DNA from: a bacterium
GTDB taxonomy: Bacteria; Bacillota_I; Bacilli_A; RFN20; CAG-826
NCBI GenBank assembly: GCA_963619935.1
Contig: CAVEYA010000067.1
Coordinates: 38-64,037, forward strand
Direction: 5' to 3'
Length of the DNA: 64,000 nt
Position 1 is the first letter of the stretch, and every line of letters starts with the position of its first letter. The translations under genes and the position numbers were made by a program. Below, piece after piece: positions 20,743-54,718 of this stretch. A model generated the notes under the pieces. The model saw only the letters and a program-made list of their open reading frames with translations, was not told the origin of the DNA and made no database searches.

Positions 20743-20754
20743 TATTTAGCAATT

Positions 20755-23830: not shown

Positions 23831-23843
23831 ATGTAGTTTATTA

Positions 23844-25004: not shown

Positions 25005-25025
25005 AGAGAATACCTTTCTATTCTT

Positions 25026-26696: not shown

Positions 26697-26707
26697 ATAT
26701 AACCTTA

Positions 26708-28318
26708 TTATTTCTTAATATAATCAGAAAGTTTTTTCAAAACATCGTTAATGGCTTCTTGTGGGGTTTTACCTTCTAAGAAGACATAGCCAGGAATGGA
26801 AGCAACTTCTGTACGAATAGAAGCAGAACCAGCGAATGGTTGATCGACGAATTTTGTCCAATTTTCACTTTCTTTAACATAGTAATCAACGTTAATCTTC
26901 GCTGTTTGTCCTTTAATACTTTCCGCCTCATTAGCAGAAGAATAAGAATCTTCTAACCAAGTCCTATAATCGACATAGTCCTCAGTTACGCCTTCCCACA
27001 TGCCACCATTTTCAGCATAAGAACAAGATGGGTAATAAGAAGTTTGACTACATAAGTAACCATTCGCGTACTTGGTTAAGAATTTTAAAAGCATCCAAGA
27101 AGCTAATCTTTCTTTTTGGCTACCTTTATCTAATAAGGCTAAGTTAGCACCTTGAGAAATAACATACTTGTTTTCTTTGTCCACATAAGGAACTGGAGCA
27201 GCTTTAATTTCAAAAGCGTTACCAGCAGGTGCGGAGTTAGCGACACCAGCGGATGAACCTAATGTCATAACTGTCTTAGAGGCTTTAAATGGATTAGAAC
27301 CATATTTTGCTTCACCCCAGTCACTTGGAATGCCAAATGTATTGTTATCATACATCGCTTTTAAACGATTAAGGCCATTAATGGTTTCTTGACTATTAAA
27401 GGAGACATAACCATGTCTATCTTCTTTATCATAATAGGTATATTCACCACCATTTTGTCTCACAGTGGTAATAAATAAGTTTGCTTGAGAGTCATAAGAG
27501 AATGGCTTAAAGCATTCTTTTTTAGCGTGTCCTTCACTACCCCATTCAAAAACACCGGTTAAATTTAAGACAATGTCATCAGTGTTTGTAGGAGCCTTTT
27601 TAGTCACGCTACCATCCTTTAATAAATAATTATCGTAGACACCCTTTGTCTTTAATAAATTAAGAATTTCTAAACCAACACCATTGAGTTCATCATAAGT
27701 GGCAGGAACATAGATTTTGTTCTTTAAATCTTCTTGGTTAGCACACCAATCAAAGAAAGTGGAGTTATAAATCAATACTTCAGTAGATTTGTTAAATGGA
27801 ACACCTAATGTATAAGGATTACCATCATTATCAAATTCAATGGATTGATTTTCTTTCATGTAGTCAGAGTAGAAATCAGAAATTTTAAAGGATTCACCTT
27901 CCGGTTCAAACACACTATGAACATCATTTTCGAAATAATAATTTAAACGAACAATAATGTCTTGATTCACATAACTTGCAAAGTGGTCAGGATAGCCAAC
28001 AATTAAGTTTGGATATTTGCCAGATGTTGCCGCTAATGTGGTAGCGTTTAAAACGTTATCATATGAACCTTTTGATTCATATCTCACCTTAACACCAGTT
28101 AAAGCGGTAAATTCATCTAAAAGAGGTTCAAGTGCTTCATTAATTGAACTACCAAATCCGGTCCAAAATTCAATTGTTGTGCCACTAACATCAGCAGTAA
28201 AGTCAATATCATAAGCAAAATTATTTCTCCAGCTAGCCTTACAGGCTGAGGTCGCAACCGCGACCCCACCTAATAAGCTCACAGCTAGAACGGATGGAAT
28301 GATTTTATTTGTTTTCAT
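26708..28318 (-). CDS. ABC transporter substrate-binding lipoprotein (large, CUT1/MalE-like), paralog 1
   Basis: Lipobox ATSAC; 536 aa; clear paralog of 28343-29908 (shared FWTGFGSS, GYPDHFA, VISQGANLAL). Confidence 0.7.
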   Translation of the reverse strand: MKTNKIIPSVLAVSLLGGVAVATSACKASWRNNFAYDIDFTADVSGTTIEFWTGFGSSINEALEPLLDEFTALTGVKVRYESKGSYDNVLNATTLAATSGKYPNLIVGYPDHFASYVNQDIIVRLNYYFENDVHSVFEPEGESFKISDFYSDYMKENQSIEFDNDGNPYTLGVPFNKSTEVLIYNSTFFDWCANQEDLKNKIYVPATYDELNGVGLEILNLLKTKGVYDNYLLKDGSVTKKAPTNTDDIVLNLTGVFEWGSEGHAKKECFKPFSYDSQANLFITTVRQNGGEYTYYDKEDRHGYVSFNSQETINGLNRLKAMYDNNTFGIPSDWGEAKYGSNPFKASKTVMTLGSSAGVANSAPAGNAFEIKAAPVPYVDKENKYVISQGANLALLDKGSQKERLASWMLLKFLTKYANGYLCSQTSYYPSCSYAENGGMWEGVTEDYVDYRTWLEDSYSSANEAESIKGQTAKINVDYYVKESENWTKFVDQPFAGSASIRTEVASIPGYVFLEGKTPQEAINDVLKKLSDYIKK

Positions 28319-28342
28319 TGATCATATCCTTTCTAAGCGTAA

Positions 28343-29908
28343 TTACGCTTTCACGTAGTCAGTAATCTTTCTATAAACAGCATCAAGAATAGCTTGGTCG
28401 TCGTTATTATATTCGCCAGCAAAGATATATCCTGGGATATAGCCAATTTCAGTACGAACAGAAGAAGAACCACGGAAGCCTGGATCAACGAATTTACTCC
28501 AAGATTCAGTAGCATAAACTTGAGAGTTAATCTTTGCGGATTCTTGTTGTAATATTGCGTTTCCATCAAATGAATCATTTAAGTATTCTTGATATTCATC
28601 AGAATTATAAGCATAGTTACATGTTGGGAAATAACCTGTACCAGCAGCGAATGCACCGTTGGCTTGTTGAGATAAGTAAACGATTAATTTCCATGCAGCA
28701 ACTTTTTGTTTTTCAGTACCCTTATTGAATAAGGCAAGGTTAGTGCCTTGAGAAATAACATATGCTTTTGTTAAGTCTTTTTGTGGAACTTGTGCGGCTT
28801 TTGTGGTGAATGTTGTACCAACAACATTGCTTAAACCACCAGTAGAGCCAACATTTAATAAGGATTGACCATTCTTAAATGGGTTAGAACAATAAGATTC
28901 TTCACCAAATGTCGCAGCAATACCAATTAAACCATTGTTCCATAAGTCACGTAACATACCCATTGCTTCTAAGGTCTTTTCTTTATTACCTTCATCATTA
29001 AAGACAGCGTAACCTTTACCAGTATTTGTGGTATCGACTTCGGTATATGTACCACCATATTGTCTTACTAATGAAATGAATAAGTTTTCTGTAGAGTCAT
29101 AAGAGAAGAAATGGAAATTTTCTTCAGTAACAGCAGAACCATCATAAACAACAGTTGTGTTAGCGGCAGTAGCAGCATCAGTTGTGTCATAAACATTACC
29201 ATCAGCGCCTAAGTATTTGCCATAAACACCTTTGGCTTTGAATAATTGTTTAACTGCTAAACCAACAGACTTAACTTCAGCCCATGTTTTTGGAACAAAG
29301 ATATCAGTTGTGGCAGTAGCAGCCCATTCAAAGAAGTTACTGTTATAACACATAACTTCAGAAGATTTATTAAATGGTAAACCTAAGACATAGCCTGTAC
29401 CATCTTCTTTAAATTCTAATGTTTCGTTTTCAGTTAAATAGTCTGTATAGAAATCACTATAATTTAAAACTTTAAGTCCATTAGCGTCTAAACCATCAGC
29501 TTTTTCACGTTTATGATCATTTTCAATAAGACCATCTAAACGGAGCTGAATATTACTGGTAATGTAACCAGCAAAGTGATCTGGATAACCAACCGCTACA
29601 TTTGCGTATTCTTTCTTTGTAGCAGATAAGTTAATTGCAGTTTGAAGATTGGAATAACCACCTTTGGTTTCATATTCCACGGTGATACCTGTCTTTGTCT
29701 CAAAATCATCGATAAGTGTTTCAAGAGTTTCATTAACTGAAGAACCAAAACCTGTCCAGAATGAGATTGTTGTTCCTCTTGTGTCAACTGTGACATCAAG
29801 GTCATATGTGTCAGCGGAGCCTAAACCGCCGGTTTGACAAGCTGACATACCTAATGTTGCAATTAAGCAAACAGGAGCAAGGATTGATAAAAGCTTTTTA
29901 CTTTTCAT
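28343..29908 (-). CDS. ABC transporter substrate-binding lipoprotein, paralog 2
   Basis: Lipobox GMSAC; 521 aa. Confidence 0.7.
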   Translation of the reverse strand: MKSKKLLSILAPVCLIATLGMSACQTGGLGSADTYDLDVTVDTRGTTISFWTGFGSSVNETLETLIDDFETKTGITVEYETKGGYSNLQTAINLSATKKEYANVAVGYPDHFAGYITSNIQLRLDGLIENDHKREKADGLDANGLKVLNYSDFYTDYLTENETLEFKEDGTGYVLGLPFNKSSEVMCYNSNFFEWAATATTDIFVPKTWAEVKSVGLAVKQLFKAKGVYGKYLGADGNVYDTTDAATAANTTVVYDGSAVTEENFHFFSYDSTENLFISLVRQYGGTYTEVDTTNTGKGYAVFNDEGNKEKTLEAMGMLRDLWNNGLIGIAATFGEESYCSNPFKNGQSLLNVGSTGGLSNVVGTTFTTKAAQVPQKDLTKAYVISQGTNLALFNKGTEKQKVAAWKLIVYLSQQANGAFAAGTGYFPTCNYAYNSDEYQEYLNDSFDGNAILQQESAKINSQVYATESWSKFVDPGFRGSSSVRTEIGYIPGYIFAGEYNNDDQAILDAVYRKITDYVKA

Positions 29909-29926
29909 AATTGTTTGTCCTTTCTT

Positions 29927-30847
29927 TTATCCTTTAATACCGGAACGTGATACACCACGCATAATATATTTTCTAAAAATTAAGAAGAATATAAATAGCG
30001 GAATTGTCGCGAATAATGAACCAGTCACTTTGGCTGGATCATCAGTGCTAAATTCACTACTTTGGAACTTCGCCATTAAGCCGTTAGAGACTAAGTGCAT
30101 ATCATTACCAAAGTATGGGTTAGTACCGGATGCCACTAATTGTGGCCAAATATAAGCATTCCACGCACCCATGAGGGAGAGAATCATAATTGTTACAATT
30201 GTTGGCATAGCAATTGGAATCATACATCTCCATAAATAGGAGAAATGCCCATAGCCATCCACTTTTGCAGCTAAGAATAATTCATTAGGAATTTGTTGGA
30301 AGGTTTGTCTTAAATAGAAGATATAGAAGACAGAAACGCCGTGCACTAAGATTAATGCAGCGTATGTATCTTTCCAGCCTAAGGCCATTGTGGTTTGGAA
30401 ATTAGTAATCATCATCATTTCACCTGGAATCATCATTGTGCCAAGTAAAATAGTGAAGATGACGTTTTTACCTTTGAATTCAACTCTCGCAAAAGCGAAA
30501 GCGGCTAATACGGAGGTAACAACCGTAAATACTGTTGAGCATACAGCAACAATAATTGTATTGAGGTAATAAGTACCAAAGTCACCAGATTTACCCATGA
30601 CTTTCACAAATTGTTCAAAGGAGAAGTTAGTAGAATTAAGGAACAAGACTAATTGTCCTTTTTGTTCTTCTAAGTTGTATGCAGTTGTGGATTTAAATGA
30701 GGTAATTAACATGTAATAGAAAGGGATAACGATAAATAAGCCCATTAATGTTAAGAAACCATAGAGTAAAACTTGAGTAATAATCTTTTTTGCTTTATAG
30801 GTGCGCATTTGTGCTGCACTAGCAAAGTATACTTCATGTTCAGCCAT
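29927..30847 (-). CDS. ABC transporter permease (MalG/UgpE-like)
   Basis: 6 TM, EAA-like loop AAKVDGYGHFSYLWRCMIP. Confidence 0.85.
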   Translation of the reverse strand: MAEHEVYFASAAQMRTYKAKKIITQVLLYGFLTLMGLFIVIPFYYMLITSFKSTTAYNLEEQKGQLVLFLNSTNFSFEQFVKVMGKSGDFGTYYLNTIIVAVCSTVFTVVTSVLAAFAFARVEFKGKNVIFTILLGTMMIPGEMMMITNFQTTMALGWKDTYAALILVHGVSVFYIFYLRQTFQQIPNELFLAAKVDGYGHFSYLWRCMIPIAMPTIVTIMILSLMGAWNAYIWPQLVASGTNPYFGNDMHLVSNGLMAKFQSSEFSTDDPAKVTGSLFATIPLFIFFLIFRKYIMRGVSRSGIKG

Positions 30848-30862
30848 ACTTATCTCTCCTTT

Positions 30863-31957
30863 CTAGTAATGCACTCTTGATTTGCTTACTGCAAATTGAA
30901 CAAGAGTTAATAACAAAATAACAATCAATAAAATAACGGAACCAGCAGCGGCACGGCCGATAGCGGATTCATTAGTAGATTGCATATATTTGTAGATGAA
31001 ACCAACGATAGTAATCCACTTTGTACCGTCAGTACCACCAAAGTCAGTAGCACCACCACCGAATAAGGCGATGATTTGTGAATAAGATTTACAGGCACCA
31101 ATAAATGATGTAATCGTAATATACAAAATCTGTGGTGAGAGTAATGGAATCGTGATTCTACGGAAGATAGTTGCCTTTGAGGAACCATCAATACGCGCAG
31201 CATCATAATATTGTTTATCAATTGTGGCTAAGCCACTCATGAAGACGAGAATTTTGAAAGCGATACCATTCCAAATGGAATAAATAACGATAACAACAAA
31301 CATGCTCCATTTATTGGCAGAATCACCTAACCAGTTCACTGGAGAGGCGCCAAACCAACCGATGAGGGTATTAAATAGACCAGCCGAACCATCAGAGAAC
31401 ATGACATTAAACACCATGCCCAAAGCGATTGAGTTAGTCACATATGGTAGGAAGAATACTGTTTGATAGAAACCTTGTAAAGGCTTAATCGAATGTAAAC
31501 AGACAGCAAGTAATAAACCAACAAGAATTGTTAATGGAACTTCCACAATAACAATAATCGCGGTGTTACCCATGGCTTGCCAGAATAATGGGTCGCTAAA
31601 TACTTTAACGTAGTTAGTAAAACCAATTGATTCAACAATACCAGAACGAGAATTGCTAAAGGAAGCTATGTAGTTAACAATCGCTAAAGATGAGTTACTA
31701 CCACCAACCCAATAGAAGTTATTAATGAATGAGATCATGATTGAGTTGATAATTGGATAAATCATAAACACAATCAAGAAGATTAAAGCTGGGATTAAAG
31801 CAATCCAACCCTTTAACCATTCAGGCATAATCCATTTGTGTTGCTTAACTTCAAGATAACCTTTATTAGTTACAGAATCTAAATAAGGGGTTTCTAAAGT
31901 TGCTGTGCCGTTAGCATCAACGAGTATTTCTTCATTCCTTTCTTTTAAATTTGCCAT
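30863..31957 (-). CDS. ABC transporter permease (MalF/UgpA-like)
   Basis: EAA loop DAARIDGSSKATIFRRITIPLL. Confidence 0.85.
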   Translation of the reverse strand: MANLKERNEEILVDANGTATLETPYLDSVTNKGYLEVKQHKWIMPEWLKGWIALIPALIFLIVFMIYPIINSIMISFINNFYWVGGSNSSLAIVNYIASFSNSRSGIVESIGFTNYVKVFSDPLFWQAMGNTAIIVIVEVPLTILVGLLLAVCLHSIKPLQGFYQTVFFLPYVTNSIALGMVFNVMFSDGSAGLFNTLIGWFGASPVNWLGDSANKWSMFVVIVIYSIWNGIAFKILVFMSGLATIDKQYYDAARIDGSSKATIFRRITIPLLSPQILYITITSFIGACKSYSQIIALFGGGATDFGGTDGTKWITIVGFIYKYMQSTNESAIGRAAAGSVILLIVILLLTLVQFAVSKSRVHY

Positions 31958-31981
31958 AATTTTTAACCAAATAACTTAAAG

Positions 31982-33481
31982 TTATTTAATCCTTTCGCCA
32001 GATTCTTCAAAAACATAGAAACGTTTTGCTGAGAAATGAAGTTCATCTTTACCAATAACATCTTTCCATGTTTCACTTGGAATAATAATCTTCACATTAG
32101 AAGATTGTCCTTTAATGGAACCAATCACAGAGACATCACGTCCAACGTGTTGGACAAAGTTCACATCAACTGGTAATTTACCTTTTGCATCGAGTGTAAA
32201 TGCTTCTGGACGAACACCGATTTTCACGGTGCGGTCACTCTTAATAACTTCTTCGTCTTCTTCCACTACTTCAAGTTGAGGATTAAGTAAAGCGCGTTTG
32301 GCTTTATGATCTAAACCTTCAAGTTTTTCTGGATGTGCTTCTAAGTCAGCGCGATATTCTTCTGGAGTAATTCTAGTGCCTTTAACAAATGTGTATTGAT
32401 GATGGATAAAACCGTGATAATCTTCTTCATAACATTTGTCAGTATCAAAGACATGTCCATCAACATATAATTTGCCGCCTTTGATTTCTCCATCAAAAAT
32501 ATTGATAGCTGGGGAACCAAGGAATTTAGCGACGAATAAATTAACTGGTTCATCATAAACTTTTTGTGGTTCATCAATTTGTTGAATAACACCAAAGTTC
32601 ATAACAACAATAACGTCAGAAATAGACATTGCTTCTTCTTGGTCGTGTGTAACGAAAATTGTAGTAATGCCAGTTTCTTTTTGAATACGTCTAATTTCTT
32701 CACGAGTTTGTAATCTCAAACGAGCATCTAAGTTAGATAATGGTTCATCTAACAATAAAACACGTGGAGATTTAGCTAACGCTCTTGCGATAGCGACACG
32801 TTGTTGTTGACCACCAGATAATTCTTTAGGTTTTCTTTCTAAATAAGGTTCGATATCGACTAATCTCGCCATTTTATGTGCGATTTCATCCTTTTCTTCC
32901 TTAGTTAAACGTCTCTTAGTTAATTGAGCGTATCTAACAGGATCTTGCTCTTTTACAGCTTGAAGTTCAGCAGTTGCTTTATTTAAGGCGCCTTCTGCTT
33001 CTGCCAATTCTGCAGCTGCGGTTTCAACCGCATTTGCATATTCAGACAAATCTTCTTCAGCAGCCTTTTGAGCTTTAGCAAGTGCCTTTTGAGCACCTGT
33101 AAGATTTCTCTGTGCTTCCTTCACACGAGTTTTGAATGCTGATAATGGGTGAGGGAAACGTACATTGTCTAGTGGGAAAGTGATATTTTGTTTCACGCTA
33201 AAATGTGGATATAAAGCGTAGTTTTGGAAAACTAAACCGATACCACGATTTTCTGGTGGAACATTTGTCACATCTTCATCACCAAACCAAATATGGCCTT
33301 CTGTTGGTTTATGTAAACCCGCAATCATGTAAAGAGTTGTTGATTTACCACAACCTGAAGGACCAAGTAAACCGACTAACTTGCCATCAGGAACAACAAA
33401 AGACATGTCACTAACAGCAGTAGTCTTGGAACCTTTCTTACCAATAAAAGTCTTAGTAAGATGTTCAATTTTTACTTCCAT
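31982..33481 (-). CDS. ABC transporter ATP-binding protein (MalK/UgpC-like) with about 100-aa coiled-coil insertion
   Basis: Probable true start MEVKIEHL at 33481 with AGGAG RBS; Walker A GPSGCGKST, signature LSGGQQQRVA, Walker B LLLDEP. Ala/Glu/Lys-rich helical insert between Q-loop and signature. Confidence 0.85.
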   Translation of the reverse strand: MEVKIEHLTKTFIGKKGSKTTAVSDMSFVVPDGKLVGLLGPSGCGKSTTLYMIAGLHKPTEGHIWFGDEDVTNVPPENRGIGLVFQNYALYPHFSVKQNITFPLDNVRFPHPLSAFKTRVKEAQRNLTGAQKALAKAQKAAEEDLSEYANAVETAAAELAEAEGALNKATAELQAVKEQDPVRYAQLTKRRLTKEEKDEIAHKMARLVDIEPYLERKPKELSGGQQQRVAIARALAKSPRVLLLDEPLSNLDARLRLQTREEIRRIQKETGITTIFVTHDQEEAMSISDVIVVMNFGVIQQIDEPQKVYDEPVNLFVAKFLGSPAINIFDGEIKGGKLYVDGHVFDTDKCYEEDYHGFIHHQYTFVKGTRITPEEYRADLEAHPEKLEGLDHKAKRALLNPQLEVVEEDEEVIKSDRTVKIGVRPEAFTLDAKGKLPVDVNFVQHVGRDVSVIGSIKGQSSNVKIIIPSETWKDVIGKDELHFSAKRFYVFEESGERIK

Positions 33482-33630
33482 AGAGATAACTCCTTTCTCT
33501 TTGTAATTATGGAATAATTCACAATATGAGTTTAACACAATATTTTTACTCACAAAAGAAATAATTGTGTGTATGTATATGTGTGTAAAAAAACTAAAAA
33601 AGGTCAACCATATATTTAGTTAACCTTCTT

Positions 33631-34845
33631 TTATTTATTTTTGTAATTATCGTTTTTATAAAGAATTGCTTCATCACGAACTTGATTTGGATCATTGCTA
33701 ACCGCAGGTTTAATTTCCTTAATTCGACCTTTTACAATATCTTCATCATTAGCATTATCAAATATTTCAGAATGTACTTTATCAATCACTATTGTGCCTG
33801 CCACTAAATCATGTAATGCAAAATGTTTTTTGGTAAAGATAGAACATGTATAACTCACTAAGGTAAATAATGTGACAAAACCAAGCATCCATAAGCTTAA
33901 GCCAAAGATTAAATATGCGACAAAGATTACTGCTATCGGTAATAAGAATCTTGGAATTAATTGATATCGTTTATAACGATACCCAATCTTATTAGCTAAC
34001 CCAAGATGGAACATGCGTTTGCCAAGAGTTTCACCGTTTTTGGCACAGATTGGAATAATAAAATAGAAAATTAAAGCTGACAAAGCAAAACTACAAAGTA
34101 TTGGGTAGGTATAGAAGTGTTTATAGTATTGGTTTTGCACTTTAACAACAAAACTACGATTTGTTAAATTTAATATCGCAATTGCGTAATAATAAGTTTC
34201 ATTTTCTGTATTTGCACTATCAGAGATATAAAAGTATTTAATTAATTTAGCTTGGTCTTCTTCACTAATAGCAGAAGTCGCATCATTATTTTGACATTTT
34301 GGTAAACCAATCACTTCTGTTAAGGTTTTACCTTCGTTGTCTAGTTGATAAGCAAATAATTCAGGTCCTTTTTCTTTTACTAATGTATTTAAATTTTCTA
34401 AATCAGAATAAATCTCTTTTATGTCTTTTAAACCTAATACATGAGTATTAAACCAATAAATAGGTGTGTTATTTTCATCATAAACCATTCTATCTTCTTC
34501 AGGTAAATCTTCACTAATTAAATAAGTAGAATAATACTGATAGAACATATTTTGATAGCCTTCATATGTATCATAAGTAATAGGTTCTATTGATGTTTTT
34601 TCATCATTGTATTTCATTAACCCACTATCAACGATATAACCATAATACTGTTCTTTAGCTTCTTTGACATAAGGAGAATTCATACAAACAACATTTTGGG
34701 TGAATAATAATAAGCCAAAAAAGACAAACGCCATGATCGCTGCGTCCACAATAAATGCCACAAAACGAGCGAATAGACCAGCATAAGCTACATTATCTAA
34801 ACCATCGACTGTATGACGTTCAATTGTGCGATTATTTTCTACCAT
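33631..34845 (-). CDS. RDD-family membrane protein with large extracytoplasmic domain
   Basis: RFVAFIVDAAIMAFVF RDD-like N-terminal TM, about 200-aa middle domain, C-terminal TMs. Confidence 0.55.
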   Translation of the reverse strand: MVENNRTIERHTVDGLDNVAYAGLFARFVAFIVDAAIMAFVFFGLLLFTQNVVCMNSPYVKEAKEQYYGYIVDSGLMKYNDEKTSIEPITYDTYEGYQNMFYQYYSTYLISEDLPEEDRMVYDENNTPIYWFNTHVLGLKDIKEIYSDLENLNTLVKEKGPELFAYQLDNEGKTLTEVIGLPKCQNNDATSAISEEDQAKLIKYFYISDSANTENETYYYAIAILNLTNRSFVVKVQNQYYKHFYTYPILCSFALSALIFYFIIPICAKNGETLGKRMFHLGLANKIGYRYKRYQLIPRFLLPIAVIFVAYLIFGLSLWMLGFVTLFTLVSYTCSIFTKKHFALHDLVAGTIVIDKVHSEIFDNANDEDIVKGRIKEIKPAVSNDPNQVRDEAILYKNDNYKNK

Positions 34846-38832: not shown

Positions 38833-39252
38833 TTATTTGGCTGCTTTTGGCTTTTTAGTACCATATAAGCTACGTCCTTGACGACGGGCTTCAATACCAG
38901 CGCAGTCTAAGGTACCACGGATAATGTGATATCTAACACCTGGTAAATCTTTAACACGGCCGCCTCTAATAATGACGGTTGAGTGTTCTTGTAAGTTGTG
39001 TCCTTCACCACCGATATAAGCAGTGACTTCATACCCATTAGACAATCTAACACGAGCGTATTTACGTAAAGCTGAGTTAGGTTTCTTAGGAGTCATAGTA
39101 CCGACACGGGTGCAGACGCCACGCTTTTGACCAGCAAATTGGTTACTTTCTTTTTTCTTTAAAGAGTTCCATCTTGCGGTAAGAGCAGGAGATTTAGACT
39201 TATAAATCTTGGAGTGACGACCTTCACGAACTAATTGGTTAATGGTTGGCAT
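38833..39252 (-). CDS. rpsL: 30S ribosomal protein S12
   Basis: MPTINQLVR start at 39252 (track ORF extends 15 codons further); conserved KKPNSALRK. Confidence 0.95.
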
Positions 39253-39464
39253 ATAATTGCTCCTTTCAAATCTTTGTTTCGTGTAACTTTCACACATGAC
39301 CTGGTGTATCGCATTCTTTCTTTAAAAAATGGACCAAAAGGTCATACGTGGTATTTACACACGCTCATATATAATATATAAAGAGTATTTTTCTCGCAAT
39401 AAAATTTCTAAACTCTGTAAATAAATTTTACCAACTATACCAGGTGTATCAATATCTTATCTTA

Positions 39465-39488
39465 ATAAAAAACACCTTTTCGGGTGTT
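39465..39488 (-). terminator. Rho-independent terminator after the 39487-41082 gene, just upstream of the rpsL promoter region
   Basis: ACACC-TTTTCG-GGTGT hairpin with T-run on the minus strand. Confidence 0.5.
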
Positions 39489-41082
39489 ATTTACTTTTTA
39501 TTTCAATGGTTATTTTATTTAAATTAATTTTTTTCACTTGGAAGGTATAGTTTAAAGATTCACCATTATCAAAGGTAAAGTCTTTAAAGACGGTGATGCC
39601 AAAATCATCACCATATTTAAATAAAGTGTCATTATTCGCTGCTTTACCATTTATAAATGTATTCTCTCCACTACTTTCTAATAAATGACATAAGACAGGC
39701 GTGTTCATAGCCTGCGCGTCAGTAACTGTATTACTATAAGCAAAATCGACGCAGTAATTTTTGCCTTTAAGTTTATTAGCGGCGTCATTATCATCAATTT
39801 TACAAATAAGCGCACTATTGCCTCCTTTTGGGAAATAGCCTAAAGAAGCATTGATATGATAAATTCTTAATCCATGATGGTTAATATAATTAAAAACTCC
39901 TCGTTCACCATTTTTATCATAATAAGTAAAACTTGCGTCAATATCATTTAATCCATCCGGAGTAAAGTATTCTATTAATAGATATTCATCATAAGGTGTG
40001 CCGTTATATTTACTAGTCGGCACTAAAATACATTCACCGGTTTTAGTAAAGGATGATAATTCAACGGTAGTGTTCACATTATCTTTTAATACTTTCGGAG
40101 ATATCCAGTTTAATAAATATTTACTAAATGGATTTTCGTCTCCCACATTATAATCCATCATGTCAAAGCAACCAGTTGGTTGGTAATGATAATCATTCGC
40201 CACACCAGTTTCATCTGGCAAATATAAAGTATTATAGTAATCATCTAAACCAAAGATATGACCAGTTTCATGTAATAAATAATTTGTGGTGGAAATATTC
40301 ATTTTTGAAGCAGTGTTACCTTGATCAATGCACTCAATTGATGACCAAGAATATTGATTCGCATATGGTTTAGTGGTGTTATAACCCCATTCATTTTCTT
40401 TGACATTATAACTATATGCCCAGAATATTGAACTACCATTATTCTTTTCTAATGGATGGTCATAGATTGCGTAAATACCATCAATATAGCCATCATTATC
40501 TAAATCATAATCGCTTAAGTTAATTAAGGTATTTTCCTTTAAATAATCAATAGCCTTAGCCACTAAGATATTACTTGCGGTCATATAAGAAGTAGATAAA
40601 TTCTTCCATTCACTAGAAGATATCCCCGCGTTATACCATGGAGCAACTTCTCCAGTTAATTTTAATTGCCCATAAGAAGATTTATTAAAATAAGAGGCCA
40701 CCGATTCATAATTTGTGTGGCTTTCTTCACCAAAGAAAGCATTTTGAATTAAGATTGTTTTTCTATCTTGTGTGCTCTTATCACTATCTGAGAAATAAAT
40801 TGGAACCACTAATAGTTTTCTTTCCCCAGTAGGCACCATATTCATACGACTACGATTATTCTTATAGTTATTGTATAAATCTCTATAACTAGAAATTGTG
40901 CCATTTATGTAAGAAATGGTTTTATTCTCTTTTAATTGATAAAAATATTCATTATCACTATCAACTCTTAATTCTTGAGCATCAACATAATTACTAAAAG
41001 GAGCAAAAACAAGCGGAATTGCTTGATTACAGCTAGTTAAGCAAATAGGTAATACAAATAATGATAAATAACGTTTTTTCAT
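39487..41082 (-). CDS. M6 (immune inhibitor A)-like zinc metalloprotease lipoprotein, paralog A
   Basis: Lipobox LTSC; HETGHIFGLDDYY zinc site (HExxH-x-GL-D-Y as in InhA/TIGR03296); 531 aa. Confidence 0.65.
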   Translation of the reverse strand: MKKRYLSLFVLPICLTSCNQAIPLVFAPFSNYVDAQELRVDSDNEYFYQLKENKTISYINGTISSYRDLYNNYKNNRSRMNMVPTGERKLLVVPIYFSDSDKSTQDRKTILIQNAFFGEESHTNYESVASYFNKSSYGQLKLTGEVAPWYNAGISSSEWKNLSTSYMTASNILVAKAIDYLKENTLINLSDYDLDNDGYIDGIYAIYDHPLEKNNGSSIFWAYSYNVKENEWGYNTTKPYANQYSWSSIECIDQGNTASKMNISTTNYLLHETGHIFGLDDYYNTLYLPDETGVANDYHYQPTGCFDMMDYNVGDENPFSKYLLNWISPKVLKDNVNTTVELSSFTKTGECILVPTSKYNGTPYDEYLLIEYFTPDGLNDIDASFTYYDKNGERGVFNYINHHGLRIYHINASLGYFPKGGNSALICKIDDNDAANKLKGKNYCVDFAYSNTVTDAQAMNTPVLCHLLESSGENTFINGKAANNDTLFKYGDDFGITVFKDFTFDNGESLNYTFQVKKINLNKITIEIKSK

Positions 41083-41117
41083 CTTAAATACAATTTTAAT
41101 CGTTATTTTATTTTTGT

Positions 41118-41150
41118 AAATAAAAAGGCGCCTATCATAGACGCCTAGTT
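41118..41150 (-). terminator. Rho-independent terminator between the two M6-like genes
   Basis: AGGCG...CGCCT hairpin with T-run on the minus strand. Confidence 0.5.
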
Positions 41151-41166
41151 ATTTAGTTAAATAAGA

Positions 41167-42750
41167 TTAAATCTTACTAAATGAGATTGTGGCACTTTCG
41201 AAACCATTAATCGCCTTAATAGTAAATTTGAAACCTAACTTAGTATCATATTTACCACTAATGCCATGGACTTTGTAATTTTGATAGATTGTGCCTTTGG
41301 CCCCGAATGTATCACCTTCCACAAATAAGCAAGAATCATCAGCAGTTCTTTGTGATTTCATGGTCTTACCATTTGCAGGTAATAATTCTAATAATTTATA
41401 GCCTGGATAAATGGAGTCACTGGCGGTGTTATCACAAGCAAAGCCTGTGTAACTTTGATCGCCTTTAGAAATAGTGCTTACAAACCCACTACATTCATAA
41501 GAAGAACTAGCAGAACTATAGGTATATAAACCTAATCTAGCATCGACAAGTGTCACTTTAATGCCAGCTTTAGAATAATACTTTGGATAAATTCCTAAAT
41601 ATTTTTCTTCACCATCTTTTTTCGCCACCCCTTCAGGAGTAATAAATTCAATGGCAAGGTATTGATCTAATAATGTGTTTTTATATTTACCTTGGACTGG
41701 AACAATAATAAAGTCACCAGTTGTGGTTGTAGACCTAATAGTAATTGTGCTACTACCAGTCACCACGTATGGGGAAATCCAACCATACCATGCTTTACTA
41801 ACAGCGTTATGATCACCAATATTGTTATCCATCATATCTAAGCCACCTAAACCACTATAATCAGAACCACTGTAGTCTGTGATATAGTAGTCTGGAAGAC
41901 CTAAGACGTGACCAAATTCATGAGTCATGGTGTGTGCGTCAGGTTTAATGCTATTATTCACAATTTCTTCTTTTGTATAATAACCAGTTGATCTAGTAGT
42001 AGAATCATACTTCTCGTAGAAGAAATTATAAGATGCCCAGAAGAAACGGTTAATACCTTCTAATTCTGGATTATATTTGCCATATGCACCACCAACACTC
42101 CAACAAAATGCCCACCATAATTCACCTGTGGTGGTAATAGGAGCGGTATAAATCATAATTAATGCATCTACATAACCATCTTTATTCGCATCATATTCTG
42201 TTAAATCAATTTCACTTGAGTGTTCACGGTAATAATCTTGAATCGCAACCGCAATTTTTTGTGAACCGGATGTGCCATATTGTTTTGCATAATCTGTAGA
42301 CTTAACGTTTGTGTGCCATGTAGGACCAACATCTCCTGTTACATTGCAAGTGCCATAGGAACTTGATTTGTAATAGCTTGCTAAAGAATACCAATCAGTT
42401 TCTTCAGTTTCACCAAACATAACTGTATTTAATTGTTCTTTAAAGCCTTCTTCACCATATGGAACAGTTGTCTCAATTGGATAGTCGGTAAAGTCAACTG
42501 GAATAACCAAGGCTCTAACGTCACTAATGACATAGTTCTTGGCGGATTCGCCTTCACTATTTTGGCCTTTTACAGTTGTGTATTGTTCAGCAGTATAGCT
42601 CATACCATTGATTCTTAATGAACGATAGGTACTATCATAATCAAATGGATTGGCCTTGAAATAATTTTGCTTACTACCACAACCAGTAGCAGTGATTGCT
42701 AAGGCACTAGCGAGGACAAATGATTTTAATAAACTTAATTTTTTCATCAT
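41167..42750 (-). CDS. M6-like zinc metalloprotease lipoprotein, paralog B
   Basis: Lipobox ATGCGS; HEFGHVLGLPDYY; 527 aa; AGGAG RBS. Confidence 0.65.
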   Translation of the reverse strand: MMKKLSLLKSFVLASALAITATGCGSKQNYFKANPFDYDSTYRSLRINGMSYTAEQYTTVKGQNSEGESAKNYVISDVRALVIPVDFTDYPIETTVPYGEEGFKEQLNTVMFGETEETDWYSLASYYKSSSYGTCNVTGDVGPTWHTNVKSTDYAKQYGTSGSQKIAVAIQDYYREHSSEIDLTEYDANKDGYVDALIMIYTAPITTTGELWWAFCWSVGGAYGKYNPELEGINRFFWASYNFFYEKYDSTTRSTGYYTKEEIVNNSIKPDAHTMTHEFGHVLGLPDYYITDYSGSDYSGLGGLDMMDNNIGDHNAVSKAWYGWISPYVVTGSSTITIRSTTTTGDFIIVPVQGKYKNTLLDQYLAIEFITPEGVAKKDGEEKYLGIYPKYYSKAGIKVTLVDARLGLYTYSSASSSYECSGFVSTISKGDQSYTGFACDNTASDSIYPGYKLLELLPANGKTMKSQRTADDSCLFVEGDTFGAKGTIYQNYKVHGISGKYDTKLGFKFTIKAINGFESATISFSKI

Positions 42751-42811
42751 CTTTCTCCTAACTAATAGAGTGTGCCCCTCACCTAAAGAGGGTATTGGGG
42801 CAAACTGCTAT

Positions 42812-45800
42812 TTATTTTTTATCTTCGTCAGCTTTTCTAATCTTTTCTTGGATTTGGCTAATCGCTTTATCGTGTTCTTCAATATAACGATCGCTGACTT
42901 CTTTCATCTTATCTTCTACAGTGAAGTGGTCAAGAATGTTGTTTTCTTGTTGTTCACTGAATAATCCACGTCCTGCTGGAATTAAGTGACCAGTAATGAC
43001 GTTTTCTTTTAAACCATGTAAGTAATCGGTCTTGCCCATAATGGCAGCATCGGTAAGTACTTTTGTGGTTTGTTGGAAGGATGCAGCGGATAAGAAGGAA
43101 TCGGTTTCAAGTGCGGATTTAGTAATACCTAACACAAGTGGGGAGAACACCGCTGGGCGTTTTCCGTTAAGAATTGCTTCTTTGTTCTTGGCGGTAAAGG
43201 TATTTAAACTCACACGTGTGCCCGCTAACATATCGGTGTCGCCAGCTTCAATGACGTAGACTTTACGTAACATTTGACGGACGATAACTTCAATATGCTT
43301 ATCGGAAATACCGATACTTTGTGCACCGTACACTTTATGTACTTCTTTGAGGATGTATCTTTCCACTTTTGCGACATCAGATACTTCGAGTAATTCCATT
43401 GGGGAAATTGCACCTTCAGTAATCTTGTCACCATTTCTAATGACGTCGCCTTCTTTAACTCTTAAGTGAGCGCCGAAGTTAGTGTGGTAACTTCTTTCTT
43501 CTAAGGAGTTACGCACTGTGACATCATAACAACCATTATTTTCTTTAATCTTGGTAACTTTACCACAGATTTGAGAAATGAGAGCTTGTCCTTTTGGTGT
43601 ACGTGCTTCGAATAATTCTTGGACACGAGGTAAACCTTGAGTAATATCGCTACCAGCAACACCACCAGTATGGAATGTTCTCATGGTTAATTGAGTACCA
43701 GGTTCACCGATGGATTGAGCAGCCATAATACCAACTGCTTCACCAACTTCAACTAATCGACCTGTCGCAAGGTTACGGCCATAACAATGGACACAGACAC
43801 CATCTTTAGTTTGACATGTTAATAAGCTTCTAATTTCAACACTCTTAATGCCAGCATCGACGATTTCTTTCGCTTTTGCTTCATTAATTAATGTATTAGC
43901 GGCAACAATCACTTCACCAGTTTCTGGGTGAATGATATCGCGCATAGAGAATCGACCAACAAGTCTATCTTCTAATTTGACCACCACTGTTTGACGAGCG
44001 GAGTCAATAATATCAGTGACAACGAAGCCGTGGTCAGTACCACAATCTTCTTCTCTCACGATAACATCTTGAGAAACGTCAACTAATCTTCTTGTTAAGT
44101 AACCAGAGTCAGCAGTCTTTAAGGCTGTATCAGCACCACCCTTACGGGCACCGTGAGTAGCAATAAAGAATTCAGACACGGACATACCTTCACGGAAACA
44201 ACGTTTAACTGGTAATTCAATAGTTTCACCGGATGTAGAACCCATCAAACCTCTCATACCAGAAAGTTGTAAGATGTTAGAAATGTTACCACGAGCACCA
44301 GAATCAAACATCATGAAGATAGAATTATATCTGTCTTTACCAACTTGTTTCTTTAATGCACCTTCGACATCATCTTTTACTTTAGACCAAACATCGATAA
44401 CTTGTTTGTGTCTTTCTTCGTTTGTTAATAAACCCATCTCATAAAGACTTGCGAGTTCATTGACTCTATCATCACCAGCTTTGATGATTTCTTCCTTACC
44501 TTCAACAGTCTTGATATCACTGAAGGAAACTGTTAAACCAGCAACTGTGGAATAATGGAAACCTTGGTCTTTGATTTTATCAAGAACAGCAGAAGTCTTT
44601 TGGATACCATTACGATCATATTTTTGGAAGATTGCATTAATGATTTGGCCTAAGGCTTTCTTACCAAATGGAGCAACGATATCTTTCTTTTTGGCTAATA
44701 ATTCAGGAATATTTGTGCCACGTGGGACAAATGTTAATTGAGTTTTATCGCCTTTTAATGCTTTTTCATTCACAACATTTAAGTATGGGAAGTCAGCTGG
44801 GAAAATAAGGTTGAAGATTACTTTACCAACAGTGGTAATTAAGTAAGATTTATTTTCTTCTTCGGTAAATGTTGATTTTTTCATCGCACTACCAACAATG
44901 GCAATACGGTTATGTAAGTGAACTTGTTTAGTTTGATAAGCTAATAATACATCATCAACGTTGCGGAAGAGTTTGCCTTCACTAGCAGCGTATAATTCGT
45001 ATTTTTCCGCCTCATCATCGTCACCAGCAGCATGTAATTTCTTGGCTTTTGCTAAGAATTCAGCTTTGGTTTCTTCCATGGTTAAGTAGTAGTTACCAAT
45101 AACCATATCTTGGGAAGGAGTAACGATTGGCTTACCATCTTTAGGACCTAAAATGTTGTTACTAGCAAGCATTAAGTCTAAAGCTTCTTCTTGAGCAGCT
45201 TTGCTTAATGGCACGTGAACCGCCATCTGGTCACCATCGAAGTCAGCGTTGAATCCGGTACACACTAATGGGTGTAAACGAATAGCACGACCATCAACTA
45301 AGATTGGTTGGAAAGCTTGAATACCAAGTCTATGTAAGGTAGGAGCACGGTTTAATAAGACTGGGTGTTTAGAAATAATTTCTTCCACGATATCAAGAAC
45401 GATTGGATCATAACGATCAATAATCTTGTCTGCAGCCTTATGCGCGTTCGCGACCTTTCTATTAATTAATTCACAAGCAATGAATGGACGGAGTAATTGC
45501 ACCGCCATTTCTCTTGGTAAACCACATTGATACATCTTTAAGAATGGACCAACCGCAATAACGGAACGACCAGAGTAGTCAACACGTTTACCTAATAAGT
45601 TTTGTCTGAAACGACCTTGTTTACCTTTTAAGGCACTAGATAAGCTCTTAAGAGCTCTTCCGCCAGGGCCTGTCACAGGTTTATTTCTACGGCCGTTATC
45701 AATTAAAGCGTCCACGGCTTCTTGAAGCATACGTTTTTCGTTGTTCAAGATAACTTGTGGGGAATTCATATCGATTAATTTCTTTAAACGGTTATTTCTA

Positions 45801-46729
45801 GAAATAACACGACGATATAAATCGTTTAAATCAGAAGTAGCAAATCTGCCACCATCGAGTTGAAGCATTGGTCTTAAATCTGGTGGAATGACTGGAATAA
45901 CATCAAGCACCATCCATTCAGGTTTATTATTAGATTTTCTAAAAGCATCAATAACTTCTAATCTCTTAGTTAACTTTTGACGGTTAATTGGAGTCGCTTT
46001 TTTGATATCGGCTTCTAATTTTGCCGCTTCATCATCTAAATTGACTTCCGCTAAAAGCTTTTTAATTGCATCAGCACCTTCGGAGAATTGTGCTCCAAAG
46101 AATTTAGCGATGAAATCAGCAACAGATTGGTAATCGAAGACTTCACCACGATTTTCCATTGAGGAAATATAGCCTTCCGCAGTGGCAACTTCAATATCGT
46201 TTAGATTTAATTCTTCACGACGATTTAAGATTTCACGAACGACTGGAATAAAGATTTCACGGCCATTACGTTCATTAATAAATTCACGTGTGTAAAGAAG
46301 TTCTGATTTACCAGGATTTAAGCAAATGTGGCCAGCGTAGTAAGCAACTTCTTCTAAGTCTTTAGGAGAAATACCTAAAACAAGACCAATTCTGCTTGGG
46401 ATACCTTTAAGGTACCAGATGTGAGTACATGGAGCATGTAATTCAATATGACCCATTCTTTCACGACGCACATCTTTTGTGGTGACTTCAACACCACACT
46501 TTTCACAGACCATGCCGGCAAATCTAATTTTCTTATATCTACCACAATTACATTCGTAATCTTTTGCAGGTCCAAAGATTTTTTCGCAGTATAAACCATC
46601 TTTTTCTGGCTTTTGACTACGATAGTTAATGGTTTCTGGTTTTAATACTTCACCATGAGACCATTTACGAATAACTTCAGGGGAGGCAAGTCCGACTTGG
46701 ATTGCCGCTAATTTTTTGACATCAAACAT
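42812..46729 (-). CDS. rpoC: DNA-directed RNA polymerase beta' subunit
   Basis: 1305 aa, NADFDGD catalytic motif, zinc-binding cysteines. Confidence 0.98.
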
Positions 46730-51763: not shown

Positions 51764-51904
51764 ATTCTTGACCTCCTTTTTTTCAATTTGTTTTTTTGAG
51801 GCTCCAATATACTTGAGTTTTTAGAAATATTTTCTATGCCTCGGTAACATGATTAAGACTACGCGTCCGTTACTGTCTACGGTATATTGAAATCTTTGGA
51901 TTAA
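51764..51904 (-). promoter_or_regulatory. rplJ 5' leader (candidate L10 autoregulatory leader)
   Basis: 140-nt structured untranslated region between rplA and rplJ, the usual position of the L10(L12)4-binding leader. Confidence 0.3.
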
Positions 51905-52596: not shown

Positions 52597-53010
52597 TTAG
52601 TCTTTCACAACAATACCCATATTAAGGGCAGAACCTTCTACGACTTTCATAGCAGCATCAATGTCATTGCTGTTTAAGTCTGGTAATTTATACTCTGCAA
52701 TACTGCGGAGTTGTTCGCGGGTGATAGAACCAATCACAACCTTACGGCCTGTAGCACTACCTTTAGCGAGTCCAGCTGCTTTTAAGATGAGACCTGCAAC
52801 TGGGGAAGTCTTGATGACAAAATCATATGATTTGTCTTCGAAAGCAGTGATAAGAACTGGAACGATTTCACCTTTTCTGTCAGCGGTCTTGGCGTTGAAG
52901 TCTGTACAGAATTTCGCCATGTTAACACCAGCAGAAGCAAGTTTTGGACCTGGTTTAGCTTCGCCACCAGGAAGTTCCATCTTCACGACTTTTGCGATTT
53001 TTTTACTCAC
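52597..53010 (-). CDS. rplK: 50S ribosomal protein L11 (GTG start, AGGAGG RBS)
   Basis: 137 aa, conserved PPVGPALG-type region. Confidence 0.95.
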
Positions 53011-53275: not shown

Positions 53276-54700
53276 TTGCGATTTAGTAAAATGGTAGCGA
53301 TGGAAAAAAGAAAAAAGAAAATTACACTTAACCCATACTTGCTAGTTATATTGTCATTTATCCTAGTTATTTTGATTGGGGCTTTTATCTTATGCATGCC
53401 GTTTTGTCAAACATCAGGTAAATGGGGCAATGTGATTGATGAAATCTTTGTTGCAACTTCTGCCACTTGTGTGACTGGTTTATGTGCCTATGAAAATGGG
53501 ATTGCTGGTCAATTAACTTTTGCCGGTCATTTAGTGATGATTATCTTAATTCAAATTGGCGGTTTGGGTTTTATCACTGTTTTAACCTTCATAGTTACAT
53601 TATTTAAAAGTAAATTACAATTCAAAAATCGTTTCTTTTTATCACAAATGGTGGGCTCTACAAACTTCGCAGATGTCGTGAAATTTGTGAGAAGATTAAT
53701 CCTTATTTCTTTCACTGTTGAAGGAGTTGGGTTTTTATTAGGATTACCGGTTTTCTTCCATGTTTATCCAAATGATCCAGGTAAAGCTTTATGGGGTGCA
53801 GCATTCCTATCTATATCTGCATTTAATAACGCTGGATTTGATTTATTCGGTAGCACATCTGTTATTCCAAATAGCAATGAATTTATGATTGCAGTTGGAA
53901 ATGGCTGGGCATATTACTACTTACTCACTTTAATTATGTTACTTATTATTGCGGGCGGCATTTCTTTCTTAGTAATAACTGACATTTTCTCTTTTAAAAA
54001 GCCAAGTCAATGGAGAGTATTTACTAAAATCGTCTTATCCACTACTGCGGTTTTATTAGTCACAGGTACATTACTTTTATTCCTCTCAGATGGTTTGAAA
54101 GAAGATGGCATGACTCTCTTCCAATGTCTATTCCAAAGTGTGACTTGTAGAACAGCAGGTTATGCAACCTACAATCAAGATAACATTTCCATTGCAGGTA
54201 AAGTCATTAGTTGTCTATTAATGGTAATTGGTGGTTCACCATTATCCACTGCAGGCGGCATTAAAACAACCACTATCTTTATGATTGTTTTAGCCATGTT
54301 CTGCTACTTTAGAGGCCGTCCAGTTGTGGCCTTCAAAAGAGAATACTCTTCAAAGATGATCATCAAAGCAATGGCCTTAATGGTTATTGCAGGCACAACA
54401 ATATTAATTGGATTCTTAGTGATGTCAGCCTTTGAAAGTAATTTAGATATGAATGCATTAGGTTTATCGACAGATAAATCTTCTGCGATTGTTTATGAGT
54501 TATTCTCCGCCTTTGGCACAGTTGGTGTCACTGTCGGTATCACACCATATTTATCTGTTGGTAGTAAAATAACATTATGTGTTTTAATGTTTATGGGTAG
54601 ATTAGGACCAATGACTTTCTTATCACTATTCCAAACCAATATGAATAAAGAAGGTAGTCAACATTATCAATATGTCGAAGAGGATTTCCTCATCGGTTAA
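53276..54700 (+). CDS. ktrB: TrkH/KtrB-family potassium uptake membrane subunit
   Basis: 474 aa polytopic; repeated selectivity-filter-like GxG motifs (IGGLGF, GFDLFG, AGYAT, TVGVTVG); start may be the internal MEKRKKK. Confidence 0.7.
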   Translation: MRFSKMVAMEKRKKKITLNPYLLVILSFILVILIGAFILCMPFCQTSGKWGNVIDEIFVATSATCVTGLCAYENGIAGQLTFAGHLVMIILIQIGGLGFITVLTFIVTLFKSKLQFKNRFFLSQMVGSTNFADVVKFVRRLILISFTVEGVGFLLGLPVFFHVYPNDPGKALWGAAFLSISAFNNAGFDLFGSTSVIPNSNEFMIAVGNGWAYYYLLTLIMLLIIAGGISFLVITDIFSFKKPSQWRVFTKIVLSTTAVLLVTGTLLLFLSDGLKEDGMTLFQCLFQSVTCRTAGYATYNQDNISIAGKVISCLLMVIGGSPLSTAGGIKTTTIFMIVLAMFCYFRGRPVVAFKREYSSKMIIKAMALMVIAGTTILIGFLVMSAFESNLDMNALGLSTDKSSAIVYELFSAFGTVGVTVGITPYLSVGSKITLCVLMFMGRLGPMTFLSLFQTNMNKEGSQHYQYVEEDFLIG

Positions 54701-54718
54701 TAAAGGAGATAAATTTTT

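Follow-up and report, generated by a model that had tools for sequence, protein, structure and literature searches.

Paralogous genes for putative M6-like metalloprotease lipoproteins between the rpoBC and str operons in a lineage of Bacilli

Two paralogous genes between rpoC and rpsL

We analyzed a 64,000-nucleotide (nt) stretch of bacterial DNA, referred to here as the window (GenBank assembly GCA_963619935.1, contig CAVEYA010000067.1, positions 38 to 64,037 of the forward strand). Its minus strand carries, in order, rplK-rplA-rplJ-rplL-rpoB-rpoC, two genes that we call M6A and M6B, and rpsL-rpsG-fusA-tuf. The interval of 3.6 kb between rpoC and rpsL was filled by these two same-strand open reading frames (ORFs), which encode proteins related to the M6 (thuringilysin-type) zinc metalloproteases and which, like the corresponding genes in related genomes, are referred to as the M6 block. 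The features of the interval and its flanks, in the direction of transcription, are as follows.

42812..46729, minus strand: rpoC, the upstream flank, a 1305-amino-acid (aa) ORF that is 60-81% identical to the RpoC adjoining the M6 block in related loci
42760..42816, minus strand: stable, imperfect hairpin without a U tract, spanning the rpoC stop codon and the 61-nt rpoC-M6A spacer
41167..42750, minus strand: M6A, 527 aa, containing MTHEFGHVLGLPDYY; predicted lipoprotein with an M6-like (thuringilysin-type) zinc metalloprotease domain
41126..41146, minus strand: terminator-like hairpin and T run 3' of M6A, with a 9-pair stem that includes five G-C pairs and the tail TTTTATTT
41093..41120, minus strand: candidate sigma-70-like promoter of M6B, TTTACA-16-TAAAAT, matching 10 of 12 consensus positions (consensus match only)
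39487..41082, minus strand: M6B, 531 aa, containing LLHETGHIFGLDDYY; predicted lipoprotein and paralogue of M6A
39471..39488, minus strand: terminator-like hairpin AACACCCGAAAAGGTGTT and T run 3' of M6B, called by the terminator scan
39371..39399, minus strand: conserved promoter-like site of the str operon, TTGCGA-17-TATTAT
39291..39343, minus strand: conserved rpsL 5' leader, assigned by alignments to rpsL and not to the protease genes
38833..39252, minus strand: rpsL, the downstream flank, 139 aa, beginning MPTINQLV, with its ATG at 39252 behind the ribosome-binding site GAAAGGAG

An initial annotation, made from the DNA letters, had proposed two paralogous M6-like lipoprotein genes at this place, each with its own terminator. 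Both ORFs and the catalytic motifs it quoted were present, and T-run hairpins were found behind each gene, at 41146-41126 and 39488-39471. Since full-length homologues of the two proteins were recovered down to E values of 1e-200, and since the same M6A-M6B pair recurred on an independent 4.6-kb Logan contig, we regard M6A and M6B as real genes and not as chance ORFs. The two proteins were 28% identical over approximately 550 columns (BLASTP, E 3e-41), which identifies them as paralogues. The left boundary of the M6 interval had to be moved, as the earlier position, 39298, was derived from a mechanically called rpsL ORF (38833-39297, 154 aa) that is over-extended by 45 nt. With the real rpsL start at the ATG at 39252, some 235 nt of the interval as first marked (39253-39486) therefore represent the promoter and leader of rpsL rather than part of the M6 block.

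Protease family, zinc site and lipobox

Both proteins passed the gathering score of 22 bits for the Pfam family Peptidase_M6 (PF05547), with 29.9 bits for M6B and 28.2 bits for M6A, the best-matching stretch in M6A being the motif region alone (residues 272-298). When the family was represented by an alignment of 24 sequences, 20 of the 24 members matched PF05547, with a best E value of 1e-13. A profile built from this alignment was searched against all sequences in the Protein Data Bank (PDB), and the only convincing match was InhA2 of Bacillus anthracis (4yu5/4yu6; E 2.8e-10), followed by snapalysin (1c7k; E 0.0017), which was matched in the motif region only. The AlphaFold2 model of M6A (predicted local distance difference test [pLDDT] 89.8, predicted template modeling score [pTM] 0.90) gave the same result in Foldseek searches of the PDB. 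Here, four InhA2 chains were the only significant matches (E 8e-11 to 1e-9, probability 1.0, query TM-score [TMq] 0.51-0.54), and weak matches to the metzincin TACE came next. For the C-terminal 202 residues, no PDB sequence was matched by the profile, and when they were modeled alone (pLDDT 88.5), the sole Foldseek match was again InhA2, weakly (E 0.02, TMq 0.38). The M6/InhA-like catalytic domain that had been proposed for both proteins is thus borne out by the Pfam score, by the alignment of the zinc motif to that of InhA2 and by InhA2 being the only significant structural match. By sequence and predicted fold, M6A and M6B are compact, divergent, putative metalloproteases of the thuringilysin (M6-like) type with an intact catalytic site, in an M6-like subfamily without a characterized member.

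The zinc motif of M6A lies in HEFGHVLGLPDYY and reads HEFGHVLGLPD (H277-E278-xx-H281-xx-G284-xx-D287), and that of M6B lies in HETGHIFGLDDYY and reads HETGHIFGLDD (H271-E272-xx-H275-xx-G278-xx-D281). In the 24-sequence alignment, H277, E278, H281, D287, Y288, Y289, D305, M306, and M307 were invariant, and G284 was conserved in both paralogue clades. The zinc-binding residues, including the Asp as the third ligand, and the catalytic Glu thus came out as expected when checked by alignment, lining up residue for residue with HAFGHDLGLPD of InhA2. Also among the invariant columns was a calcium-type loop, D187/D191/G192/D195 (D-x-D-x-DG), which aligns with InhA2, and the invariant D305-M306-M307, 18-20 residues past the Asp ligand, make up a candidate Met-turn. 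Metzincins carry the motif HExxHxxG/NxxH/D, and an Asp as the third ligand is found in thuringilysins (M6) and snapalysins (PMC12237041). Across 144 copies from related loci, HExxHxx[G/N]xx[D/H] was kept in 137, and a zinc ligand was lost in one, a middle M6 paralogue in which the second His is gone (HEFGN; L054:9557-11176, plus strand). This conservation of the catalytic residues argues for the predicted protease activity of the family. At a threshold of 85%, no residue was fixed differently in the A and B paralogues, which would have been a sign of changed specificity; the diversification of specificity that the initial annotation read from the duplication is a hypothesis. As a side observation, the L054 copy was the only clear candidate for a pseudo-protease among the 144, and in six others the motif Gly was replaced by Ser.

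Among known proteins, InhA1 and InhA2 of the Bacillus cereus group (MEROPS M6; PDB 4YU5/4YU6) come closest. M6A and M6B share with InhA2 the HExxHxxGxxD motif with its Asp ligand, the fold of the catalytic domain, the calcium-type loop upstream of the active-site helix and, weakly, the domain that follows, and like InhA2 they are predicted to act outside the cytoplasm. In contrast to InhA (approximately 750-800 aa), they comprise only about 530 aa, which leaves no room for the complete InhA architecture of propeptide, catalytic, VEG and MAM domains, and the latter two were not detectable as Pfam domains. The identity to InhA2 in the structural alignment was 11-12%, and while InhA is released, M6A and M6B are predicted to be lipid-anchored through a lipobox and are a fixed pair between rpoC and rpsL. 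PrtV of Vibrio cholerae, a Gram-negative bacterium, is reportedly a secreted, multidomain, InhA-like M6 metalloprotease of 102 kDa, an example of use of the M6 family outside Bacillus, by diverse bacteria.

Two other metzincin families were considered and rejected. Snapalysin (M7) of Streptomyces has the same short HExxHxxGxxD motif with an Asp ligand in a minimal metzincin of 132 aa, but the match was weak and restricted to the active-site helix (Pfam M7 E 0.041), and the scores fell below the cutoffs for PF02031 (14.4 bits versus 25) and NF033628 (14.5-16.3 versus 300). The igalysins (M64) are exemplified by the IgA protease (IgAse) of Thomasclavelia ramosa, a membrane-bound protein of ~140 kDa and seven domains with an Asp third ligand, which needs a downstream "wrapping" domain beside its catalytic domain (PMC12237041). 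Its source is a gut member of a neighboring order (Erysipelotrichales), and it shares the Asp ligand with M6A and M6B. In igalysins, however, the Gly is preceded by one additional residue (HExxHxxxGxxD; PMC12237041), which is missing from the HExxHxxGxxD spacing of M6A and M6B, and M64 gave no match in the Pfam, PDB profile or Foldseek PDB searches.

The proposal that both proteins are lipoproteins was also upheld. Their predicted signal peptides, basic and then hydrophobic, end in a lipobox, MMKKLSLLKSFVLASALAITATG followed by C in M6A and MKKRYLSLFVLPICLTS followed by C in M6B. The lipobox of M6A is ITATG before Cys24 and that of M6B is CLTS before Cys18 (LTSC). The lipobox Cys was invariant in the 24-sequence alignment, and a lipobox regular expression matched 122 of the 144 copies. 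The lipidating enzyme Lgt is encoded in the same window (8033-9544, minus strand; PF01790, E 6e-40), and no Lsp was found in the window, to which the search was confined. At 503 aa, this Lgt homologue is unusually long, with PF01790 spanning residues 165-415 and extensions at both the N and C termini. The group that carries the M6 block is known from metagenomes, with reduced genomes reported, and RFN20 genomes, to which it probably belongs (see below), have no sortases (PMC10868615). Lipid anchoring would therefore be the available route for surface display.

The family is large. An exhaustive profile search retrieved 9,873, 4,839, and 1,914 clusters (50% identity) at E values of ≤1e-3, ≤1e-10, and ≤1e-30, respectively, and a substantial share of the at least 1,900 clusters at the strictest threshold are compact proteins of ~530 aa and probably lipoproteins. 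Nearly all of 439 word-indexed homologues were unnamed or labeled "hypothetical protein [Bacilli bacterium]," and one had the JGI name "M6 family metalloprotease-like protein." Multidomain versions also occurred (P0181, P0194-P0198, P0207, P0224, P0262, P0276, P0277, P0287), with N-terminal extensions of 170-800 residues before a complete M6-like unit of ~470 aa and a total length of 690-1250 aa.

Distribution and history of the M6 block

Relatives were collected from contigs with one genome per species, in which 422 stretches encoded a relative, and the best 79 loci were examined. The M6 block adjoined rpoC and/or rpsL in 63 of these 79 loci, with rpoC immediately upstream in 57 and, in another six at contig ends, rpsL immediately downstream. 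The complete order rpoB-rpoC-[M6 x 1-4]-rpsL-rpsG-fusA-tuf was found in 44 loci, always co-oriented. Among the block-bearing loci, RpoC identity to the window ranged from 81% down to ~60%, and the number of M6 copies per locus varied from one to four among lineages. As an outgroup control, we used RpsL-seeded metagenome contigs; these were mostly outgroups, with two loci at 88% RpsL identity, and do not amount to a census within the clade. Where rpoC lay upstream of rpsL in the outgroups (n = 32), the gap between the two was 166-873 nt in 28 loci, and the four larger gaps contained no M6 gene. An M6B-like gene before rpsL was found in only one RpsL-seeded locus, L082, which is one of the two at 88% RpsL identity. 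In B. subtilis, the small L7Ae-like gene ybxF/rplGB lies between rpoC and rpsL. Compared with the usual rpoBC-str junction, the window thus has the same flanks and orientation, but 3.6 kb with two protease genes in place of the outgroup gap.

The initial annotation had described this junction as interrupted by two inserted genes. The interruption stands, given the short, M6-free gaps of the outgroups, whereas a local or recent insertion does not, as the block was present in 63 of 79 related loci. An insertion found throughout the lineage had been named, in combination with a lack of protease activity, as what would speak against the proposal. The first of these two conditions is what the loci display, with RpoC identities as low as ~60%, while the conserved catalytic residues argue for activity. 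In a neighbor-joining tree of 142 copies, the rpoC-proximal copies and all single-copy cases grouped with M6A and the rpsL-proximal copies with M6B, while middle and ectopic copies fell between the A and B clades. Clades that follow position in this way indicate that the duplication is old and positionally fixed. By these comparisons of sequence, the M6 block is an old, lineage-specific feature rather than something newly inserted into this genome. We found no paper joining M6 proteases with RF39, RFN20, Acholeplasma or Erysipelotrichales, and no description in the literature of a conserved rpoC-[M6]-rpsL synteny.

The related loci came from rumen, gut, and fecal metagenome-assembled genomes (MAGs), with some MAG names of lake and groundwater type. 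Their NCBI labels were "Bacilli," "Erysipelotrichales," and "Mollicutes," besides some others that were plainly wrong. The sole two Candidatus genera among the loci, Candidatus Caccosoma and Enteromonas, belong to the GTDB order RFN20 (PMC8035907). The block-bearing clade is probably a group of RFN20-like, uncultured, host-associated Bacilli.

Further genes were present between rpoC and the first M6 gene in several loci (L008, L011, L031, L032, L036, L039, L041, L048, L052, L054, and L078) and within or after the M6 block in others (L013, L030, L040, and L042). They included a Xan_ur_permease-family (xanthine/uracil) transporter (L036), a PFK (L008), a Schlafen AlbA_2/HTH protein (L011), and unannotated ORFs of ~440-720 aa. 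The M6 genes keep their place despite these extra genes, and the rpoC-rpsL interval behaves like a permissive landing site.

On its downstream side, the block borders the conserved rpsL leader, which consists, in order, of the promoter-like site, a hairpin GACCTTTTGGTC (39343-39332), a T run (39329-39324), the core GATACACCAGGTCATGTGTG (39310-39291), and GAAAGGAG. The leader was seen upstream of rpsL in the window, in L002-L080 and in several of L083-L155. Its core is nearly invariant (GATACACCNGG-N4-GTGTG), with the general form (A/C)C(A/G)CC-N-GG-N4-GTG(T/G), and the TTGCGA-17-TATTAT site aligned with TTGC/TTGAC...TATAAT in ~19 distant loci. Of 50 related loci, 44 contained the core, as did 11 of the 76 outgroup loci scanned (five full and six partial; RpsL 70-78% identical in those 11). 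Since the core also occurs in outgroups without the M6 block, the proteases sit between signals that were there before them.

The stem variants of the leader stay complementary (ACAC/GTGT, CCAC/GTGG, CCGC/GTGG, and ACGC/GCGT). The named 5-bp hairpin was paired in 87% and covaried weakly, compared with 78% pairing after a slide of -2. No Rfam family matched the leader, even at E ≤ 10, and RNAalifold gave no consensus structure on a MAFFT alignment of the rpsL leaders. A second copy of the core, GATACACCTGGTATAGTTGG (39431-39450, minus strand), lies ~140 nt further upstream, on the 5' side of the conserved rpsL promoter, where it overlaps an alternative promoter-like site (39452-39425); the copy has the same position in L002, L004-L006, L045, and L060. 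Two core copies flanking a promoter suggest a DNA-binding regulator, and a palindromic DNA operator would be as plausible as an RNA element. The leader could be an undescribed ribosomal-protein leader, attenuator or operator of the str operon in Bacillota.

Role, expression and alternative explanations

Taken together, we think it likely that M6A and M6B are anciently duplicated, catalytically competent surface zinc endopeptidases of the M6/thuringilysin type, fixed between the rpoBC and str operons. Each protease would be exported by its Sec signal peptide, lipidated by Lgt at the lipobox Cys and held by this anchor on the outside of the cytoplasmic membrane. Zinc would be bound via His277, His281 and Asp287, with Glu278 as the general base, as in metzincins, and the enzymes, sitting at the cell surface, would hydrolyze extracellular proteins or peptides. 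The block may have become fixed between the two operons in an early ancestor of the clade and been kept under purifying selection as a core trait. The rpoC-proximal A-type would then be the universal copy, and the rpsL-proximal B-type and the extra copies would be later, still old, duplicates. The protease genes would mostly be transcribed as units of their own, lying between the terminator of rpoC and the pre-existing rpsL promoter and leader. The conservation of the A-type as a single orthologue, with a variable number of extra copies, suggests a core physiological role. The most likely one would be scavenging of proteins or peptides and amino acids for a reduced genome, possibly together with cleavage of host defense proteins.

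Several points weigh against this interpretation. The first is the distance from M6 proper. In the search against TIGR03296 (NCBIfam) that had been recommended, ~260-270 of the 286 model positions were aligned, with E values of 1e-23 for M6B and 1e-29 for M6A, but the scores (83.9 and 104.2 bits, respectively) missed the curated cutoff of 110.8 bits. In Pfam scans of both proteins and of the 24-member family, no domain besides PF05547 reached its cutoff, and the VEG and MAM domains of InhA were not detected. Scores below the TIGR03296 cutoff and the lack of VEG and MAM place M6A and M6B at subfamily distance from M6 proper. The Met-turn is a candidate only, proposed from the conserved DMM. All members of the family are hypothetical or come from uncultured organisms, and their protease activity and localization are predictions. 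With regard to history, one small group of rpoC-proximal copies fell outside the A clade, in what is a single neighbor-joining tree with no support values. The assignment of the block-bearing clade to RFN20 depends on the two named loci, Caccosoma and Enteromonas, whose homologues do not adjoin rpoC or rpsL. Finally, the ATP-binding cassette (ABC) transporter beside tuf has binding proteins of the sugar type (SBP_bac_1/8) and not of the oligopeptide type, and the idea of a link between the proteases and peptide uptake by this transporter was dropped for that reason; the neighboring genes do not favor any one of the roles considered here.

InhA of Bacillus thuringiensis/cereus reportedly cleaves insect antibacterial peptides. 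One alternative, along the lines of the initial annotation, is that the proteases serve mainly in evasion of host defenses, by cleaving antimicrobial peptides, immunoglobulins or mucosal proteins of the host. This would fit with InhA2 being, in structure as in sequence, the one relative whose structure has been solved, with the host-associated origin of the carriers (rumen, gut, and fecal MAGs), and with a paralogue number that varies from one to four across lineages, as expected of host-interaction genes. In addition, one metzincin of a gut bacterium of the Bacillota, whose third ligand is likewise an Asp, acts as an IgA-specific protease (PMC12237041). However, the zinc motif of M6A and M6B is without the extra residue that defines igalysins, and the A-type is a single orthologue across divergent hosts and some non-host samples, which fits a housekeeping function better than an arms race. 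We therefore consider host-defense evasion unlikely as the main role.

The initial annotation had also suggested that the position next to rpoC and rpsL may give strong constitutive expression. A related possibility is that the proteases, or at least M6A, are co-transcribed with rpoBC, so that extracellular proteolysis would follow how strongly the machinery of transcription and translation is expressed. The rpoC-M6A spacer of the window has only 61 nt, and its hairpin (-21.7 kcal/mol, z -2.66 by RNA folding) has no U tract and was not called by the terminator scan. It is not a canonical intrinsic terminator, and read-through into M6A is possible in this genome. M6A has a ribosome-binding site, AGGAG, 6 nt upstream of its start. 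Its codon adaptation index (CAI), calculated with the tuf, fusA, ribosomal-protein, and glycolysis genes of the window as reference, was 0.693, at the level of rpoB and rpoC (0.689 and 0.708, respectively). The M6 copies were also co-oriented with the flanking operons in every locus, as such coupling would predict. In relatives, on the other hand, the median rpoC-M6 spacer was 179 nt, and a terminator-like hairpin followed rpoC directly in 40 of 45 cases, compared with 14 of 280 coding control windows. Permease, PFK, and Schlafen-AlbA_2 genes are tolerated between rpoC and M6 in several lineages, and the rpsL promoter and leader predate the block. A terminator-like hairpin was likewise found in 30 of 48 M6-M6 spacers of relatives. 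M6B has its own promoter-like site (41120-41093), and terminators on both sides; it lacks a clear Shine-Dalgarno sequence, and its CAI of 0.589 is ordinary, similar to that of uvrA. Strong constitutive expression driven by location is thus not supported as a general feature, and read-through from rpoC is plausible only for M6A, which has a CAI of 0.69, a short gap and a hairpin that lacks a U tract. A growth-rate-coupled module comprising the proteases as such is improbable.

A third alternative is that the enzymes act on the cell itself, as sheddases or maturases of its own lipoproteins and secreted proteins. InhA1 reportedly cleaves NprA and reshapes the secretome of B. anthracis, which would be a precedent within the InhA family. 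The window encodes numerous other hydrolases, putatively secreted or on the surface, that could be substrates (SNase-domain, Big_2, metallophosphoesterase, and Endonuclease_1 proteins), and a core function throughout the lineage would suit the conservation of the block. However, there was no conserved linkage to a specific substrate gene in the related loci, where the neighbors beyond the interval are housekeeping operons, and we regard self-directed processing as quite improbable. Finally, we rejected both a recent, horizontally acquired island and a set of inactive pseudo-proteases or adhesins as having hardly any chance of being correct, because the lower G+C of the interval (0.30-0.36, versus 0.38-0.44 in the flanking operons), which would suit an island, is within the range of ordinary window genes (0.26-0.37) for M6A and M6B, because the synteny in 63 of 79 loci across deep divergence and the positional orthology argue against recent arrival, and because the catalytic residues are invariant in the 24 sequences, with a zinc ligand lost from only one of the 144 copies.

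If the preferred interpretation of M6A and M6B as conserved surface proteases is right, their importance would lie in the lifestyle of the carriers. The reduced genomes and the absence of sortases in RFN20 (PMC10868615) make surface lipoproteins the likely main interface of these organisms with the host or digesta, and a conserved, apparently active pair of surface metalloproteases would be a candidate for peptide acquisition or for blunting host defenses. The fixed rpoC-[M6]-rpsL order is a simple synteny marker that could help to bin or classify MAGs. The gain is otherwise one of annotation, for a large M6-like subfamily without a characterized member, together with a modest evolutionary curiosity, and it overturns nothing current. 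A bolder view, which we put forward as speculation and would not expect to hold, is that the block serves, much like a synapomorphy, as a core module of a clade at the level of an order (RFN20 and its neighbors; uncultured, sortase-poor, and partly wall-less), with the A-type co-expressed with RNA polymerase. Surface proteolysis, and hence amino-acid supply, would in that case scale with growth, and the block would be both a clade marker and a physiologically central enzyme.

Some further observations were made in the window. Downstream of tuf (18326-34845, minus strand), there is a run of genes for an RDD-family membrane protein, the sugar-type ABC transporter with two solute-binding proteins, a 556-aa SNase-domain protein, a DUF5689 protein, two Big_2 proteins, one of them with a metallophosphoesterase domain, and a metallo-beta-lactamase-fold protein. 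Several of these post-tuf genes had a CAI at the ribosomal level (Big_2, 0.77; solute-binding protein, 0.77), and this probable surface and scavenging set fits a nutrient-scavenging lifestyle. A 430-aa Endonuclease_1 protein is encoded at 58980-60272 (plus strand). Over the whole window, the only Rfam matches at gathering score were an L10 leader upstream of rplJ (51813-51900, minus strand; 45.6 bits versus 44) and one tRNA gene (20758-20830, minus strand). The usually contiguous secE-nusG-rplKAJL-rpoBC cluster is broken at a second place in the same window, where trkH-trkA (53276-55396, plus strand), on the opposite strand, separate nusG (55455-56078) from rplK (52597-53010).

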